Source: Candidatus Methylomirabilia bacterium
GTDB lineage: Bacteria > Methylomirabilota > Methylomirabilia > Rokubacteriales > CSP1-6
NCBI GenBank assembly: GCA_041492755.1
Contig: JBGPXN010000005.1
Coordinates: 1-63,876 of the forward strand
DNA: 63,876 nucleotides
Direction: 5' to 3'
Positions 50,035 through 57,159 of the stretch are shown here, in pieces. Each line of letters begins with the position of its first letter. Position 1 is the first letter of the stretch. The translations under genes were made by a program, and so were the position numbers. Below the pieces are notes generated by a model. The model ran no database searches. It had not been told where the DNA came from and saw only the letters and a program-made list of their open reading frames with translations.

Positions 50035-50141
50035 CGAGCGGGCTCAAGTACGAGCTGGACGCCCTCGCGAACAAGGACTTCCAGTACCTCACCAAGCGCT
50101 ATCTGCCCCGCAAGCTCAAGGAGAAGGACGGGCTGGACTAG
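50035..50141 (+). repeat. top6A: 3' end of topoisomerase VI subunit A, copy 1 (att-like direct repeat)
   Basis: Encodes SGLKYELDALANKDFQYLTKRYLPRKLKEKDGLD*, which resembles the C-terminus of bacterial Top6A; fused directly to the top6B fragment. Confidence 0.8.
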
Positions 50142-50177
50142 CGCGACAGTCTGACGCTCTATAATCGTCCGGCAGCC

Positions 50178-51287: not shown

Positions 51288-51394
51288 CGAGCGGGCTCAA
51301 GTACGAGCTGGACGCCCTCGCGAACAAGGACTTCCAGTACCTCACCAAGCGGTATCTGCCCCGGAAGCTCAAGGAGAAAGACTGGCTGGACTAG
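51288..51394 (+). repeat. top6A: 3' end of top6A, copy 2
   Basis: 107 bp with 4 mismatches to copy 1 (3 synonymous; W instead of G), ending ...KEKDWLD*. Confidence 0.85.
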
Positions 51395-51436
51395 CCCAAC
51401 TTCCACGCGCGCCGAGTGGGAGAGCCCACGCGGCGA

Positions 51437-52099
51437 TTACTCCACGAGCAGGAGGCGCTCACCGAGCGCGTTCAGGTCGGCGATGAAGCGGTTGCAATCG
51501 GGAGGGTCGCTCCACCGGACCAGCCGCCAGTCGTCGTTCGTGACCGTCAGCAACACGCGCGCGATGTCTGCCGGGAAGAGTCCCTCGGCCTTGCTGTGAG
51601 CAGCTTCGAGCGCCGCCTCGCACGAAAGATTCATGCGGCAGCAGAATCCCCAGACGTCGGCAAGATCCTTGGGCTCGCGCCGATCCACGACGGCCGTCAG
51701 CTTGTTCGCGAGGATGTTCTCGGGGCTGTCGAGCCGCCCGAGAACGGGATGAATGTGGATTGCGCCGACATGCGCGGGGACGTCGTCGATCATGTCGAGC
51801 TTCAGGATGACGTCGGCGGCCGTCACGTTGACGCGAACGAGCCGATCGTCACGCTGCAGCACGTCCACCTGCCAATCGGCGCGCTCGGCGATCGCATGGA
51901 TGACACGCTGCGACCACAGACCGAAGCGCGCATCGTCGTTCACGAAGAGGTCGAGATCGTCCGAGAACCGATGGTGGAGATATCCGCGAGAGGCCGCCGT
52001 CCCACCCGTCAAGTAGAAGTCCGTTTCGACCGACGCCACTCGAGCGAGGACCGCGTCCTGCAGGGGATACATGCGGTCGAAGAAGAAGGTACGGTCCAT
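51437..52099 (-). CDS. AbiEii-family nucleotidyltransferase (type IV TA toxin)
   Basis: FYLTGGTAASRGYLHHRFSDDLDLF, ILANKLTA..DRREPKDLADVW. Confidence 0.9.
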   Translation of the reverse strand: MDRTFFFDRMYPLQDAVLARVASVETDFYLTGGTAASRGYLHHRFSDDLDLFVNDDARFGLWSQRVIHAIAERADWQVDVLQRDDRLVRVNVTAADVILKLDMIDDVPAHVGAIHIHPVLGRLDSPENILANKLTAVVDRREPKDLADVWGFCCRMNLSCEAALEAAHSKAEGLFPADIARVLLTVTNDDWRLVRWSDPPDCNRFIADLNALGERLLLVE

Positions 52100-52116
52100 C
52101 CCGTGGGCAGCGGGCA

Positions 52117-52401
52117 CTACACGAGGTGTGGGCGATGTTCGGGCAGCCAGGCGACGAGGAAGTCGAGCCCGCGGCGGCGGGTCTCGGATCGTACCCGTGC
52201 TCGCCACTCAGGCCAACCTCTCACGAGATCACGGAAGCCGAGCCAGCGCACGATTTCCCGGTAGGGCGCGTACTCCAGTACGCGAACGGCCGCCCACGTC
52301 CGATCAAGACGGCCGAGGGTGATCTCTCCGGCAAGCAGGCGTCGAAAGGTCGCCTCGTCGATGTCGTAGTCCCACACGAATGGAAGTCGATCCGCACCCA
52401 T
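52117..52401 (-). CDS. Small putative antitoxin upstream of AbiEii
   Basis: 94 aa, FVWDYD..WAAVRVLEYAP; co-oriented just upstream of the toxin. Confidence 0.75.
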   Translation of the reverse strand: MGADRLPFVWDYDIDEATFRRLLAGEITLGRLDRTWAAVRVLEYAPYREIVRWLGFRDLVRGWPEWRARVRSETRRRGLDFLVAWLPEHRPHLV

Positions 52402-52477: not shown

Positions 52478-55400
52478 TCAGCGGATCGACCGGAGCTGCC
52501 CCGATCCCGCTGCCCGGCCGGTCACGTCGCCGACGAAGGTCTCCTCCAGGGGCTGGCCACGGTTGCCGAAGCCGGTTGCCCACAGCTCGATCTGGAAGGC
52601 CGAGCCGGTCGAACGTCCGACGTACCAGTTGCCCGTCAGGCGATCGTGGACGATCGCGTCCGCCTTGCCATCCCCCGTCAGGTCGGCGACGAAGACTTCC
52701 TCGACGGTCGGGCCGCGGTTGCCGAAGCGGGAGACCCAGGGCTCGATGGTGAAGCTGGCGCCGGTGGAGCGGCCGACGTACCAGTCCCCGGTCTGGATGT
52801 CGTGGATGACGGCGTCGGCGGAGCCATCACCGGTCACGTCCGCGACGAAGACTTCCTCCACGGCCGGGCCACGGTTGCCGAAGCGCGTGATCCACTGCTC
52901 GATGGTGAAGCTGGCGCCCGTGGAGCGGCCGACGTACCAGTCGCCGGTCTGGACATCGTGGATGACGGCGTCGGCGCGGCCGTCGCCGGTCACGTCGGCG
53001 ACGAAGACTTCCTCGATAGTGGGACCACGGTTGCCGAAGCGGGCGACCCAGTGCTCGATTTCGAAGCGCGTGCCGGTGGAGCGGCCGACGTACCAGTCGC
53101 CGGTCTGGACGTCGTGGATGACGGCGTCGGCGCGGCCGTCGCCGGTGACGTCGGCGACGAAGACTTCCTCGAGGGCGGGACCACGGTTGCCGAAGCGCGC
53201 GACCCAGTGCTCGATGGCGAAGCTGGCGCCGGTGGAGCGGCCGACGTACCAGTCGCCGGTCTGGACGTCGTGGATGATGACGTCGGCCCGACCGTCGCCG
53301 GTGACGTCGGCGACGAAGACTTCCTCGAAGTCGGGTCCACGATTGCCGAAGTTCGAGACCCAGTGCTCGATCTCGAAACTGGTGCCGGTGGAACGGCCGA
53401 CGTACCAGTCGCCGGTCTGGACGTCGTGGATGACCGCGTCGACCTTGCCGTCGCCGGTGACGTCGGCGAGGAAGACCTGCTCGGTGGCGGGCCCACGATT
53501 GCCGAAACGGGAGACCCAGCGCCCGATGTCGAGGCTGGAGCCGGTGGAGCGCCCGACGAACCAGTCGCCGGTCTGGGCGTCGTGGATGATGGCGTCCGCC
53601 CCGGGGTCGATGGCGAAGCTCGCGCTGACGGCAACTGCCGCCGTCACCGTGACCGTACACGACCCGGTGCCGCTGCAACCGCCTCCAGTCCAGCCGGCGA
53701 AGCTCGAGCCCGCGGTCGCGGTGGCGGTCAGCGTCACCGAGGTGCCGCTGGTGAAGGAGTCGGAGCACGCGGGAGGGCACGCGATACCTGACGGTGACGA
53801 CGCCACCGTCCCGCTGCCGGAACCCGGCGTGCTCACCGAGAGCGCGAACGATGACACCGGGGTGACGGGGGCGAACGACGCGAACACCGAGGTGGCCGCG
53901 CCGACGGTGACGCTGCACGAGCCCGTGCCGCTGCAGCCGCCGCCCGTCCAGCCGGTGAAGCTCGAGCCCGCGGCCGCGGTGGCGGTCAAGGTGACCGACG
54001 TGGCATTGCCGTACGTCTGGGCGCAGTCCGCGCCGCAGTTGATTCCCGGGGCCGACGACGCGACTGTCCCGGCGCCGGCGCCCGCTCTGATCACCGTGAG
54101 CGTCGCCGCCGGAGGCGGAGTGTTCTCCGTCCCGTAGATGCGGAGCGACCAGCTGTCCCAGGTGCCGACGTCCACGGCCGCCCGGTCGGCGACACGCAGC
54201 GTCCAGTTGCCATCGGCCGGCTCGCCCCAGTGGCGCACCGACGTGAAGACCCAGGCCGAGAAGTTGTCGCCGCTATCGGCCGATCGGACGGTCGCCAGAC
54301 GACTCATCGTGCCCGAGGGCGACGTCAGCGTGACCTCGAGGTCGCCCCGATACGGATGCGTCGCGCTGAACACCACCTCCACGTGCTCGACCTGAAAGCC
54401 GGCATGTCCCGCGATGGTGATCGTATCGGTGCGTCCGCTGGCGTCGTTGTCCGGGATGCCGAGGTTGACGTTGTGAGTCACCGCGGGGATCGCCACCTCG
54501 GGACCGACGCCGGGCCACTGGCCGGCGAGATTGACGGCAGCGGCCGCGTCGATGAGGCCGAAGCCGAAGCGCTCGTTGTGCGGGAAGGCCCCGGTCGTCC
54601 AGCCGGCATCCGCCGGCTGGACCTTCACGGCGGTCCGGACCAGAACGTGCTTGACGTCCCGCCAGGTGAGGTTGGGATTCTGGGCCAGCATCAGCGCGAT
54701 CGTCCCGGACACCAGGGGCGTGGCGGAGGAGGTTCCGCCGAACGTGCTCGTGTAGTCGGACGCGCTGTAGCCGTTGCCGCCGACGAGATCGGTCGTGGTG
54801 ATGCCGCGGCTGCCGCCGCTCGACCCGGCGGTCACGAACATCGCCGAGCAGGCCTCGCTGTACGAGGCCGCCTGTCCGGTGTCGGCCAGCGCGCCGACGG
54901 CGATCACGTAGCGGTTGTTCGCGTACCCGTCGAAGTTGCAGTTGTCGCCGGATCCACCGTTGCCGGCGGCCCACGTGAAGATCCGGCCCCGACCGTTGCG
55001 CCCGGTCGTGATCGCGTTCGCGATGGAGGCCAGCGTGAGCGGACCCGGTCCCTCCAGCGTGCGTCCGTCGTCCGACGGTCCCCAGGAGTTGCTCGCGATG
55101 TGGATCGCGTCGGCCATGTAGCCGAGGGCATCGGCCTCCTGCTGGTCGGACGTCGGCGCCGCGATGAGACGCAGCCCGGCCAGTGTGGCCAGGGGCGCGG
55201 CGCCGCTCACGCCGAGGCCGTTGTCGCCGCGGGCGGCCGCGATGCCCGCCACCGCGGTGCCGTGAAAGTCGACGGACAGGGTCGGACTGGGATCGGCGTC
55301 GTTGAAGTTGAAATCGAACGACAGCGCGCTCGAGTAGTTCGAGACCAGGTCCGGGTGAGTGTGCTGCAGGCCGTCGTCGACGATGCCGATCACGATGCCG

Positions 55401-55618
55401 GCGCCCAGTGTCGTGGTCCACGCCGCCCGGGCGTCGGCGCCGGCCGTCTCCTCGGCGCGCGATTTCAGATGCCACTGGTTTTCCAGCAGCGTATCGGGGG
55501 CGGCGAACGCAGGGAGCACCCACAGCACGAGCGCGAGGCCGACGAGCAAACGTGTCGGCAAGCGGCCGGCCGCGAAGAGTCCGTCCCCGCGGCGAGCGCG
55601 TGGCCGGGCGAGCTTCAC
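52478..55618 (-). CDS. Secreted kexin/furin-like S8 serine protease + P-domain + two bacterial repeat (InlB-B/Flg_new-like) domains + 7 x 52-aa C-terminal repeats
   Basis: Catalytic D (IVDDG), H (HGTAVAG), oxyanion N (AAGNG), S (GTSSATP); P-domain HPYRGDL...GNWTLRVAD; repeats VTLTATAAAGSSFTGWTGGGCSGTGSC. Confidence 0.93.
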   Translation of the reverse strand: MKLARPRARRGDGLFAAGRLPTRLLVGLALVLWVLPAFAAPDTLLENQWHLKSRAEETAGADARAAWTTTLGAGIVIGIVDDGLQHTHPDLVSNYSSALSFDFNFNDADPSPTLSVDFHGTAVAGIAAARGDNGLGVSGAAPLATLAGLRLIAAPTSDQQEADALGYMADAIHIASNSWGPSDDGRTLEGPGPLTLASIANAITTGRNGRGRIFTWAAGNGGSGDNCNFDGYANNRYVIAVGALADTGQAASYSEACSAMFVTAGSSGGSRGITTTDLVGGNGYSASDYTSTFGGTSSATPLVSGTIALMLAQNPNLTWRDVKHVLVRTAVKVQPADAGWTTGAFPHNERFGFGLIDAAAAVNLAGQWPGVGPEVAIPAVTHNVNLGIPDNDASGRTDTITIAGHAGFQVEHVEVVFSATHPYRGDLEVTLTSPSGTMSRLATVRSADSGDNFSAWVFTSVRHWGEPADGNWTLRVADRAAVDVGTWDSWSLRIYGTENTPPPAATLTVIRAGAGAGTVASSAPGINCGADCAQTYGNATSVTLTATAAAGSSFTGWTGGGCSGTGSCSVTVGAATSVFASFAPVTPVSSFALSVSTPGSGSGTVASSPSGIACPPACSDSFTSGTSVTLTATATAGSSFAGWTGGGCSGTGSCTVTVTAAVAVSASFAIDPGADAIIHDAQTGDWFVGRSTGSSLDIGRWVSRFGNRGPATEQVFLADVTGDGKVDAVIHDVQTGDWYVGRSTGTSFEIEHWVSNFGNRGPDFEEVFVADVTGDGRADVIIHDVQTGDWYVGRSTGASFAIEHWVARFGNRGPALEEVFVADVTGDGRADAVIHDVQTGDWYVGRSTGTRFEIEHWVARFGNRGPTIEEVFVADVTGDGRADAVIHDVQTGDWYVGRSTGASFTIEQWITRFGNRGPAVEEVFVADVTGDGSADAVIHDIQTGDWYVGRSTGASFTIEPWVSRFGNRGPTVEEVFVADLTGDGKADAIVHDRLTGNWYVGRSTGSAFQIELWATGFGNRGQPLEETFVGDVTGRAAGSGQLRSIR
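52520..53607 (-). repeat. Intragenic tandem repeat, about 7 units of 156 bp
   Basis: Units DVTGDG.ADA.IHDVQTGDWYVGRSTG.SF.IE.W..RFGNRGP..EEVFVA. Confidence 0.92.
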
Positions 55619-56325
55619 CGCGGCAGGCGGAGACGCTTCAGCAATGGATAGGCGGTCCGCACGCCGGGCTGTCCGCGAAGCGCGTCGGCGAGGGCGACGG
55701 CAGCGAGGGGATCATCGCCCTCGACCACGAAGGCGTCAGGCACGCTGCCGACGGGCCTGAGGGCCTTTCCGCCAAGACCCGACGTCACCGGTGTGGGATC
55801 GCGGCCCGGCTTCATGACCACGGCAACCTCGGTGGTCAGCAGGCGGCGCGTGGCCTCTGTCCGGGGTGCCCGCGCCTCGTACAGGACCAGGTGCACGGCG
55901 GCGCCCGGATTGAGTGCGCGCAGGGCAGCGGCTTCAGCGGTCAGGGCCGCGGAGTCCGGCACGCCTGCCAGGGCGACCCGGGTCCGGGCGGGATCCTGGC
56001 CCATGACGGTCGCCCGCGGGGTCATGGCCGCGGCCAGGCCGGGGCCGCGGGACTTGGCCTGGGGATCGCCAGACCAGTCGATTTCGACCTCGTCGAGGGC
56101 CAGCTCGAACGTCCGACGGTCCGGCACGTGGAGGTCGAGAAGGGCGCCGGGCTGTGCTGCGGCCCCGAGGACCTGCGTCAGCAGCAGCACGGGCAAGGCC
56201 AGCGCGAGAACCCTCGGCGGCCTGCGCGGGGATGACCGCCCAGAACGGCCGGCGGCGCATGTCAGGGAATCCAGGCGAGAGCTGCCGCCCGGGCTCATAT
56301 GAACCGTGAGGATACCTCCCGTCAT
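55615..56325 (-). CDS. Secreted protein resembling a stand-alone S8 pro-domain (start uncertain)
   Basis: Own hydrophobic signal (VLALALPVLLLTQVLGAAA); ends ALADALRGQPGVRTAYPLLKRLRLPR; stop codon overlaps the S8 GTG start. Confidence 0.65.
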   Translation of the reverse strand: MTGGILTVHMSPGGSSRLDSLTCAAGRSGRSSPRRPPRVLALALPVLLLTQVLGAAAQPGALLDLHVPDRRTFELALDEVEIDWSGDPQAKSRGPGLAAAMTPRATVMGQDPARTRVALAGVPDSAALTAEAAALRALNPGAAVHLVLYEARAPRTEATRRLLTTEVAVVMKPGRDPTPVTSGLGGKALRPVGSVPDAFVVEGDDPLAAVALADALRGQPGVRTAYPLLKRLRLPR

Positions 56326-56401: not shown

Positions 56402-56433
56402 CCGCAAGCTCAAAGAGAAAGACTGGCTGGACT
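56402..56433 (+). repeat. top6A: 3' end of top6A, copy 3 (32-bp core)
   Basis: CCGCAAGCTCAAAGAGAAAGACTGGCTGGACT; 2 synonymous mismatches to copy 2; the stop TAG is replaced by TGG. Confidence 0.8.
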
Positions 56434-56446
56434 GGAACCGGGCGGA

Positions 56447-57022
56447 TCAGGGGAGAAGATCGGCGACGCTGATCCGGGCGTGGGGCGCGGCCAGCGGACT
56501 CACGCTGTCGCGCGGGCCGAACACCGCCACCTCGCCGTAGTCCCACCCGTACGGCGCCGGCGGCGAGGGCGTCGGCGCCCGGCGAACCTCGAGCACGCTG
56601 TCGACCAGGTTGACGATCCAGTACTCCGGGCGGCCCGCGCGGGCGTAGAGGCTCGACTTGTACCGGCGGTCCAAGGTGAAGCTCGAGAGCGTGACCTCCA
56701 CCACGAGCACCGGAGCGGCCGGATGCGCCCGAGCATAGTCACGGAGATCGCCCCGCACGACCGCCACGTCCGGCTCGGGCACTGATGCCTCGTCGAGCGC
56801 GATCGGCCCCTGGGTACGAACGGTCCAGCCGTCCCCGAAGGCGCGTTGCAACGCCCGCTCGACGAGCTTGATGGCGGTGTAGTGCCGTGAGCTCTGCGGC
56901 TCGGCGACGACGAGCAGGCCGTCGATCAGCTCGATCCGGTCCTCCGTCGTGAAGACGCCCTGCTCGACGAGCGCCTCGTACTCGACGCGCTTCCACCGCT
57001 TGAGCTCGAGCTCGGTTTCCAT
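56447..57022 (-). CDS. Uma2-family (DUF820) putative restriction endonuclease
   Basis: IELIDG, PEPDVAVV, LVVEV..SS..LDR, YWIVNL; paralogue of 7555-8130. Confidence 0.9.
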   Translation of the reverse strand: METELELKRWKRVEYEALVEQGVFTTEDRIELIDGLLVVAEPQSSRHYTAIKLVERALQRAFGDGWTVRTQGPIALDEASVPEPDVAVVRGDLRDYARAHPAAPVLVVEVTLSSFTLDRRYKSSLYARAGRPEYWIVNLVDSVLEVRRAPTPSPPAPYGWDYGEVAVFGPRDSVSPLAAPHARISVADLLP

Positions 57023-57159
57023 GGCTGTTCCTTCACCCCGAACTGTAGTCACTGACGGATGAGCCGTCAATGTCGCGAAAGCGTGACTGTGGCCGGACGG
57101 TGACACTCGCGGAACAGTGACGGCTGCCCGCTCGGAGACGAGGATGCTCGAAGACGAGG

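Follow-up and report, generated by a model that had tools for sequence, protein, structure and literature searches.

A kexin/furin-type protease without a prodomain of its own and an overlapping upstream gene for a free-standing prodomain-like protein in a Candidatus Methylomirabilia bacterium

A contig stretch of 63,876 nucleotides from a Candidatus Methylomirabilia bacterium (JBGPXN010000005.1; the whole stretch is called the window below) carries two overlapping genes, one for a small protein and one for a large subtilisin-like protease of family S8 (Table 1). Very probably, the two genes constitute one kexin/furin-type protease system made as two polypeptides and split at the boundary between prodomain and mature domain, in which the small protein, hereafter the prodomain protein, would serve the protease in trans as a chaperone and as a temporary, product-like inhibitor. 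The protease lacks a prodomain in cis, the small protein corresponds to the pro-region of single-chain (fused) relatives, and the same pair recurs in other genomes.

The two reading frames share 4 nucleotides at the junction ...CTG CCG CGG TGA, where the GTG start of the protease lies inside 'GGTGA', and this GTGA overlap suggests that translation of the two genes is coupled. Both start codons are uncertain, with ATG 56325 or ATG 56298 possible for the prodomain gene and the overlapping GTG or an in-frame TTG a few codons further on for the protease gene, and both signal peptides are retained under any of these alternatives. The signal peptides were judged by eye and by their conservation in homologues. 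In the prodomain protein, the N-terminal hydrophobic, signal-like segment reads RRPPRVLALALPVLLLTQVLGAAAQPG; in an AlphaFold2 model a disordered basic N-region precedes a helix at residues 38-53, and an equivalent hydrophobic leader was present in all full-length stand-alone homologues, the exception (P0009) being a gene call that starts late. A twin-arginine translocation signal ('SPRRPPRV') was considered for this protein and dropped, as the twin Arg is not conserved among homologues. A scan for promoters and terminators found no sites.

Overall, the protease has the S8 triad and the P-domain expected of the kexin/furin subfamily S8B and lacks the N-terminal cis prodomain. Across all PDB sequences its closest matches were yeast kexin (E 4e-86) and furin (E 3e-82), with Aeromonas ASP far weaker (E ~1e-25). 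Its N-terminal part reads VKLARPRARRGDGLFAAGRLPTRLLVGLALVLWVLPAFA followed directly by APDTLLENQWHL, and the alignments to kexin and furin begin at residue 40-43 of the protease, equivalent to residue 9-20 of the crystallised mature chains, and extend to residue ~498, that is, through the P-domain. Because these alignments start straight after the leader, there is no room for a cis prodomain. In fused relatives the dibasic site is followed by xPNDxxFxxQWHL, with which the mature start also aligns, and in split homologues an equivalent protease signal peptide stands directly before DPLLxxQWHL. We thus confirmed two claims of an earlier note made on this DNA from its letters alone, namely that the protease runs from its signal peptide straight into the mature domain and that the overlapping upstream gene has a signal peptide of its own. 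The Asp-His-Ser triad is kept in the alignment with kexin (ivDDgl, dfHGT, gGTSsa), and the acidic pocket motifs SWGPsDDG and NCNfDGY, common to kexin and the window protease, suggest a P1 specificity for basic residues. Towards the C-terminus, two InlB-B-repeat-like domains (Flg_new_2 x2) precede the FG-GAP-like repeats, whose 156-nucleotide units are highly regular (78-81% identical at the DNA level). A 98%-identical metagenome homologue (P0162) has 890 residues compared to 1046 in the window protease; by comparison of lengths, the difference of 156 residues equals three repeat units, which would fit variation in repeat number or assembly collapse.

The relationship of the prodomain protein to cis pro-regions emerged from a phmmer search against 1.84 billion representatives, which returned 163 matches. 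The ~60 strongest were stand-alone proteins of ~200-220 residues, while 51 of the 150 matches listed had at least 600 residues and were nearly all S8/P-domain proteins matched at their N-terminal ~50-200 residues (E 1e-15 to 1e-4 for the long proteins). All six scanned long proteins with a prodomain-only match carried Peptidase_S8 and P_proprotein domains, with S8 starting at 207-224, and a QWHL start motif downstream of the match together with the D/H/S hallmarks was found in 45 of the 60 representatives longer than 300 residues. A MAFFT alignment of stand-alone and fused sequences gave correspondence over the full length, with the shared motifs FE[LV]ALDE, [EH]LVLYE, RRxLT and LADxLRxxPGV. 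Judged by sequence, the prodomain protein is homologous over its full length to the pro-region of single-chain bacterial S8 and P-domain proteases, the segment between signal peptide and S8 mature domain, and coincidence would fall far short of explaining the resemblance. With hhalign, the family profile could be aligned with P0266, a bacterial relative, in register with its PF16470 S8_pro-domain region (63-129) and ending on ...ARQQYPR; the comparison with a second PF16470-bearing protein (P0279) was not significant (E 0.19). The prodomain protein itself had no match in Pfam or NCBIfam, none of 11 family members matched any Pfam model at E up to 10 (PF16470 and PF05922 included), and the family profile gave only chance-level matches to PDB sequences at E up to 10 (adenylate cyclase, L33). 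The family is large, comes from uncultured soil and groundwater bacteria, and is absent from Pfam and NCBIfam.

The predicted fold is in line with this relationship. An AlphaFold2 model built on an 11-sequence alignment (mean predicted local distance difference test score, pLDDT, of 79, with 85-95 in the folded part) contains two alpha/beta domains. The N-terminal domain carries the motifs ELALDEVE.DW and HLVLYE, and its counterpart is the N-terminal half of cis pro-regions (FE[VL]ALDEL..., ELVLYE). With the full-length model, Foldseek retrieved tandem RNA recognition motif (RRM) proteins and engineered ferredoxin-fold proteins at template modelling (TM) scores of 0.19-0.26 and root-mean-square deviations (rmsd) of 10-15 Å, which may be read as a pair of ferredoxin-like domains whose mutual orientation differs. 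RNA binding, as the RRM-like matches could imply, was rejected for a protein that is exported according to its putative signal peptide. When the C-terminal domain was modelled alone (pLDDT 81; DSSP order E-H-E-E-H-E), the first-ranked Foldseek match in the whole PDB was the free prodomain of human proprotein convertase (PC) 1/3 (9fic; TM 0.67/0.71, rmsd 2.6 Å), the second was the PC1/3 prodomain bound to furin (9fie_B; TM 0.70/0.72, rmsd 2.3 Å), and pro-subtilisin E ranked ninth. The modelled domain has the beta-alpha-beta-beta-alpha-beta open-sandwich fold of kexin/PC prodomains (MEROPS I9-like).

The break between the two chains coincides with the predicted processing site. The prodomain protein ends in ...DPLAAVALADALRGQPGVRTAYPLLKRLRLPR; its terminal R is invariant in the alignment of stand-alone homologues (A1), and a C-terminal R was found in 46 of the 65 stand-alone representatives of at least 170 residues, with the typical end AYPLLKRxxxxR. 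This Arg aligns with the last basic residue (KK/RK/KR) of fused sequences, which read ...PLLARQQQKK and then W-PNDTLFxQQWHL, and since that residue is their predicted P1, the stop codon of the prodomain gene lies at the predicted autoprocessing site. Here the earlier note, which had likened the end of the upstream protein to that of an S8 pro-domain with a basic site and had proposed similarity to the N-terminal regions of single-chain kexin-like proteases as the test, was borne out on both counts by the alignments. In effect, the prodomain protein would end as a 'pre-cleaved' prodomain that needs no autocleavage, its chain already finishing at P1. The terminal Arg is also kept where the start codon does not overlap (L010, L013 and L017; CGG or CGC), which argues that it is not a mere by-product of the overlapping start codon. 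In the closest fused relatives, P0167 and P0187, the catalytic domain is 65-69% identical to that of the window protease (P0167 69%) and the prodomain is recognised by the family profile at E 5e-44 and 5e-37, respectively. They read ...AYSLLKRQMFTR, followed by a linker of 14-20 residues and DPLLDSQWHL, with no second signal peptide. Compared to them, the window shows the same layout with a stop/start and a signal peptide added at the prodomain/mature junction.

The pair is not confined to the window. A small gene followed by an S8 and P-domain protease with its own signal peptide was found in the window, in L003/L005/L012 (Rokubacteria GWC2_70_16 and 'Elusimicrobia' GWA2_69_24), L008 (genome G020), L011, L013 (genome G114), L016 and L017, that is, in at least seven independent assemblies, with prodomain identities of 38-82%. 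The 4-nucleotide ATGA/GTGA overlap was present in five of the seven pairs, with a short gap in L013 and L017; ATGA overlaps occur at the same junction in L003, L008, L011 and L016, as well as in L004, where the downstream gene is of a non-S8 type as far as the contig shows. The window genome shares its family with G020, a genome whose protease (P0166) carries the label Candidatus Rokubacteria. Within the phylum of the window the pair is sporadic, with a full-length stand-alone prodomain copy in 4 of 251 genomes, from four genera. This distribution was taken from a homology search of the genomes, as a pattern scan of genome contigs, which returned two loci only (both the same Rokubacteria/'Elusimicrobia' sequence), was too narrow for the purpose.

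In a quick maximum-likelihood tree of 105 catalytic and P-domains (short search, midpoint rooting, split and fused classes assigned by motif position), the prodomain-less proteases formed one clade with a support of 100 in the Shimodaira-Hasegawa-like approximate likelihood ratio test (SH-aLRT); the clade has 54 rows, 42 of them classed as split. The fused group of P0167, P0187 and P0190 is nested inside this clade, and more distant fused forms lie outside it. Provisionally, one split followed by one re-fusion is the most economical reading of the tree. Two loci of unusual structure were seen among these relatives. L019, a fused close relative, has an in-frame TAG inside the prodomain (…GVEHAYVV*ASDPM…; 2986-2988) where P0187 has Glu, either a nonsense mutation or a sequencing error, as a result of which the gene caller started protease P0190 inside the prodomain. 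L018 (1-6105) carries two prodomain-less S8 and P-domain proteases in tandem, of 2316 and 1034 residues, and the 3 kb before the second contain no prodomain gene; one partner may serve both, or a prodomain gene may lie upstream of the first.

The propeptides of subtilases are textbook intramolecular chaperones. From the known roles of the prodomains of subtilisin, kexin and furin, and from the trans case of ASP and ORF2 described below, we infer how the two chains might work together. Both would be made from one message, translationally coupled through the GTGA overlap, and each would leave the cytoplasm on its own, guided by its Sec-type signal peptide. Once outside, the prodomain protein of ~180 residues would bind the unfolded or newly folded catalytic domain and act as an intermolecular folding chaperone. 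Because it ends at the P1 position of the autoprocessing site of its one-piece relatives, its free C-terminal Arg would be expected to occupy the S1 pocket as an autocleavage product does, making the protein a temporary product-like inhibitor. Protease activity would then set in once the prodomain protein has come off or been degraded, which might follow a cut at a conserved internal Lys-Arg five residues upstream.

Several points weigh against this two-chain system. The interaction in trans, the chaperoning and the inhibition are deduced from sequence and a predicted fold, and the signal peptides of both chains were assigned by eye. The prodomain family is without any Pfam, NCBIfam or PDB sequence match, and the hhalign match to P0266 is weak (E 5e-4, probability 31%). 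The Foldseek E-values for the C-terminal domain are marginal (3e-3 to 1e-2), which is usual for a domain of 80 residues; it is the ranking that carries the weight. For P0207, a close prodomain-less protease that comes after another S8 gene, no small prodomain gene lies within 3 kb upstream. Finally, relatives of the prodomain protein occur next to, or fused with, proteins of other kinds. In L004, the small gene (with the ATGA overlap) is followed by a secreted protein with 'DGNFYGTT' repeats, of which 680 residues are visible and contain no S8 domain; in L010, the next gene encodes an FG-GAP/Calx-beta protein, non-S8 as far as the contig shows; and BNR/sortilin-like proteins (P0023, P0064, L009, L014 and L015) carry a related domain as a fusion.

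An alternative explanation is that the prodomain protein is a secreted inhibitor or 'immunity' protein only, free-standing and I9-like, comparable to the propeptide-like inhibitors of fungi, plants or Plasmodium. The catalytic domain would then need no help to fold, and its activity would be kept in check in the periplasm or at the surface. The homology, the fold and the C-terminal Arg are equally compatible with inhibition and with chaperoning. Propeptide-like inhibitors that stand alone are known, among them yeast PBI2 and Pleurotus POIA1, both of the MEROPS I9 type. The propeptide-like protein of Plasmodium SUB1 is a further case (PMC6993865), and a passage in PMC10580911 describes the propeptide as not an obligatory chaperone in some hyperthermophilic subtilases. 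However, the protease clade is without a cis prodomain while the partner stays coupled by a 4-nucleotide overlap, as would be expected if the partner replaces the folding function, and in the one studied case ASP needs ORF2 for its maturation (PMC5638518). We therefore regard a purely inhibitory role as rather unlikely.

Less likely again is that the small protein is a general secreted module for several kinds of large surface proteins and is not tied to the window protease. The homologues upstream of the non-S8 repeat protein in L004 and the FG-GAP protein in L010, and the related domain fused N-terminally to the BNR/sortilin-like proteins, would be accounted for in this way. Nevertheless, an S8 and P-domain protease lies downstream in seven of the nine contexts with an identifiable downstream gene, and the break coincides with the processing site of the fused S8 relatives. 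The downstream genes of L004 (6001-8555) and L010 (4001-7083) are cut off by the contig ends, and in some relatives (class 'otherN') other domains come ahead of S8, so that these two genes may still have an S8 domain further on. The prodomain module is not strictly exclusive to proteases, which leaves some room for a broader role. In addition, both L004 and L010 have a Flg_new_2/BNR/sortilin-like gene upstream of the stand-alone homologue. In L009 (G033:C57), L014 (G184:C371) and L015 (G181:C164), from genomes of the window's family, the prodomain-like domain stands N-terminally in cis after the signal peptide of large BNR/sortilin-Vps10-like beta-propeller proteins without a protease domain, with the motifs ALDEV..., LVLYxxG and RRLLT.

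That the split is an artefact or a pseudogene, produced by a frameshift or nonsense error in a one-piece gene, has next to no credibility even though broken copies exist (the fused L019 with its in-frame TAG in the prodomain), since, in keeping with what the earlier note had argued from the two signal peptides, the same split at the same residue is seen in no fewer than seven independent assemblies with identities of 38-82%, each time with a new protease signal peptide whose hydrophobic leader has no counterpart in fused forms and usually with ATGA/GTGA.

The two-chain system resembles known ones in part. In principle, the combination of a kexin-like protease lacking a propeptide and an external chaperone is already known, whereas the arrangement in the window is undescribed. 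In the ASP/ORF2 system, the C-terminal Lys of the external chaperone ORF2 lies at the catalytic centre of ASP, and ORF2 both aids maturation and inhibits, with a half-maximal inhibitory concentration of 84 nM; it is encoded at the 3' end of asp, and the system has been reported from five gammaproteobacterial or betaproteobacterial genera (PMC5638518). A 2022 survey treats ASP as the exception among subtilases in being without a propeptide (PMC9549277), and for the Aeromonas sobria ASP/ORF2 system (PDB 3HJR and 3WQB) both papers cite Kobayashi et al. 2015 (JBC). Similar to ASP/ORF2, the window pair combines a kexin-like S8 and P-domain protease without a cis propeptide with an adjacent small secreted partner that has a basic C-terminus. 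In contrast to ORF2, which is downstream of its protease, the window partner is upstream, in the ancestral order of pro-region then catalytic domain and with a 4-nucleotide overlap. No sequence relation between the partners was detectable, the A1 profile having no match to 3WQB chain B in a search of all PDB chains at E up to 10 and no Pfam family matching, any ORF2 model in that library included. The window protease is also much nearer to kexin and furin than to ASP (E 4e-86 and ~1e-25, respectively), its partner is, by homology, the protease family's own two-domain prodomain, severed at the predicted processing site, and the family comes from uncultured soil and groundwater lineages.

The cis prodomains of kexin, furin and PCs (PF16470; 9FIC, 9FIE) share with the prodomain protein the fold of the C-terminal domain, as modelled, and a basic end at the junction with the mature domain. 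Unlike them, the window prodomain is made as a polypeptide of its own that carries a signal peptide, finds no match in the Pfam model, and has twice their length, an additional ferredoxin-like domain lying at its N-terminus. The single-chain bacterial relatives (P0167, P0187, P0074 and P0080; all uncharacterised) have homologous pro-region, catalytic domain and P-domain, but in them a short linker, with no second signal peptide, connects the pro-region and the mature domain. Stand-alone propeptide-like subtilase inhibitors, such as the Plasmodium SUB1 propeptide-like protein (PMC6993865), are likewise free-standing, have the propeptide fold and bind subtilases in trans; their target proteases retain a cis propeptide and are not encoded with them in an operon, whereas the window protease has no such propeptide and its gene overlaps that of the partner.

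The surroundings of the pair were also inspected. The copies of a 32-nucleotide direct repeat at 51361-51392 and 56402-56433 bracket a block of ~5 kb that contains an AbiEii-like gene, the protease gene and the prodomain gene, an arrangement that fits horizontal mobility. There is a longer repeat pair of 113 nucleotides (50035-50147 and 51288-51400), and the two kinds of repeat together look like tandem insertions at one target site. The small open reading frame (ORF) overlapping the AbiEii-like toxin gene could encode its antitoxin.

Table 1. Positions of the gene pair, its parts and the neighbouring features in the window.
Feature	Position	Strand	Details and basis
Gene for free-standing, putatively secreted prodomain protein	55615..56325	(-)	236 residues from ATG 56325; ORF list
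Gene for prodomain-less kexin/furin-like S8B protease	52478..55618	(-)	1046 residues; ORF list, Pfam, PDB sequence search
GTGA stop/start overlap of prodomain gene and protease gene	55615..55618	(-)	junction read from sequence
Prodomain protein: hydrophobic core of putative signal peptide, residues ~38-57, VLALALPVLLLTQVLGAAAQ	56155..56214	(-)	sequence; AlphaFold2 helix 38-53
Prodomain protein: N-terminal domain, residues ~61-150, predicted ferredoxin-like	55876..56145	(-)	AlphaFold2, pLDDT mostly 85-95
Prodomain protein: C-terminal domain, residues ~160-231, predicted beta-alpha-beta-beta-alpha-beta, kexin/PC-type fold	55633..55848	(-)	AlphaFold2, Foldseek
Prodomain protein: C-terminal tail KRLRLPR-COOH, terminal Arg as predicted P1	55618..55638	(-)	alignment with fused relatives
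Protease: putative signal peptide, residues 1-39, ending ...LLVGLALVLWVLPAFA before A	55502..55618	(-)	read from sequence
Protease: mature domain start APDTLLENQWHL	55466..55501	(-)	aligns with N-terminus of mature kexin/furin chains
Protease: S8 catalytic domain, residues 72-340, triad VDDG / HGT / GTS	54599..55405	(-)	Pfam PF00082, E 4e-45
Protease: P-domain, residues 410-494, hallmark of kexin/furin subfamily	54137..54391	(-)	PF01483, E 6e-27
Protease: C-terminal FG-GAP-like repeat region, period 156 nucleotides / 52 residues	52517..53752	(-)	FG-GAP_3 x7; tandem repeat families D1, D2
94-residue ORF overlapping and upstream of AbiEii-like gene	52117-52401	(-)	no Pfam match
AbiEii-type nucleotidyltransferase toxin homologue	51437-52207	(-)	PF08843, E 5e-13; directly downstream of protease
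32-nucleotide direct repeat, family D4, 91-100% identity	56402..56433; 51361-51392; 50108-50139		repeat search
Uma2-family putative restriction endonuclease	56447-57106	(-)	PF05685, E 1e-23; immediately upstream of block-closing repeat

A bolder extension of the two-chain system, which we offer tentatively and consider doubtful as a whole, is that the window pair represents a large and ancient clade of bacterial kexin-like proteases in which obligate two-chain folding, 'pre-cleaved' at P1, took the place of intramolecular folding, that the boundary between fused and split forms was crossed both ways (P0167 and P0187 being re-fused), and that the freed module was recruited to other large secreted proteins (the BNR/sortilin-like fusions and the FG-GAP or repeat-protein neighbours) as a portable trans folding or holding factor for surface proteins in general and not for proteases alone.

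For annotation, the prodomain family would allow ~50 or more clusters (at 50% identity) of 'hypothetical proteins' to be named, and the adjacent proteases could be flagged as enzymes that require a partner when produced in a heterologous host; if the upstream gene is left out, the proteases of this clade will probably not be obtained in active form. The relatives may also represent an evolutionary series from fused to split to possibly re-fused forms, in which the gain of a stop/start and a signal peptide divided a gene at the site of proteolytic processing. As a natural two-component system, the pair would make folding, inhibition and release separable without engineering.

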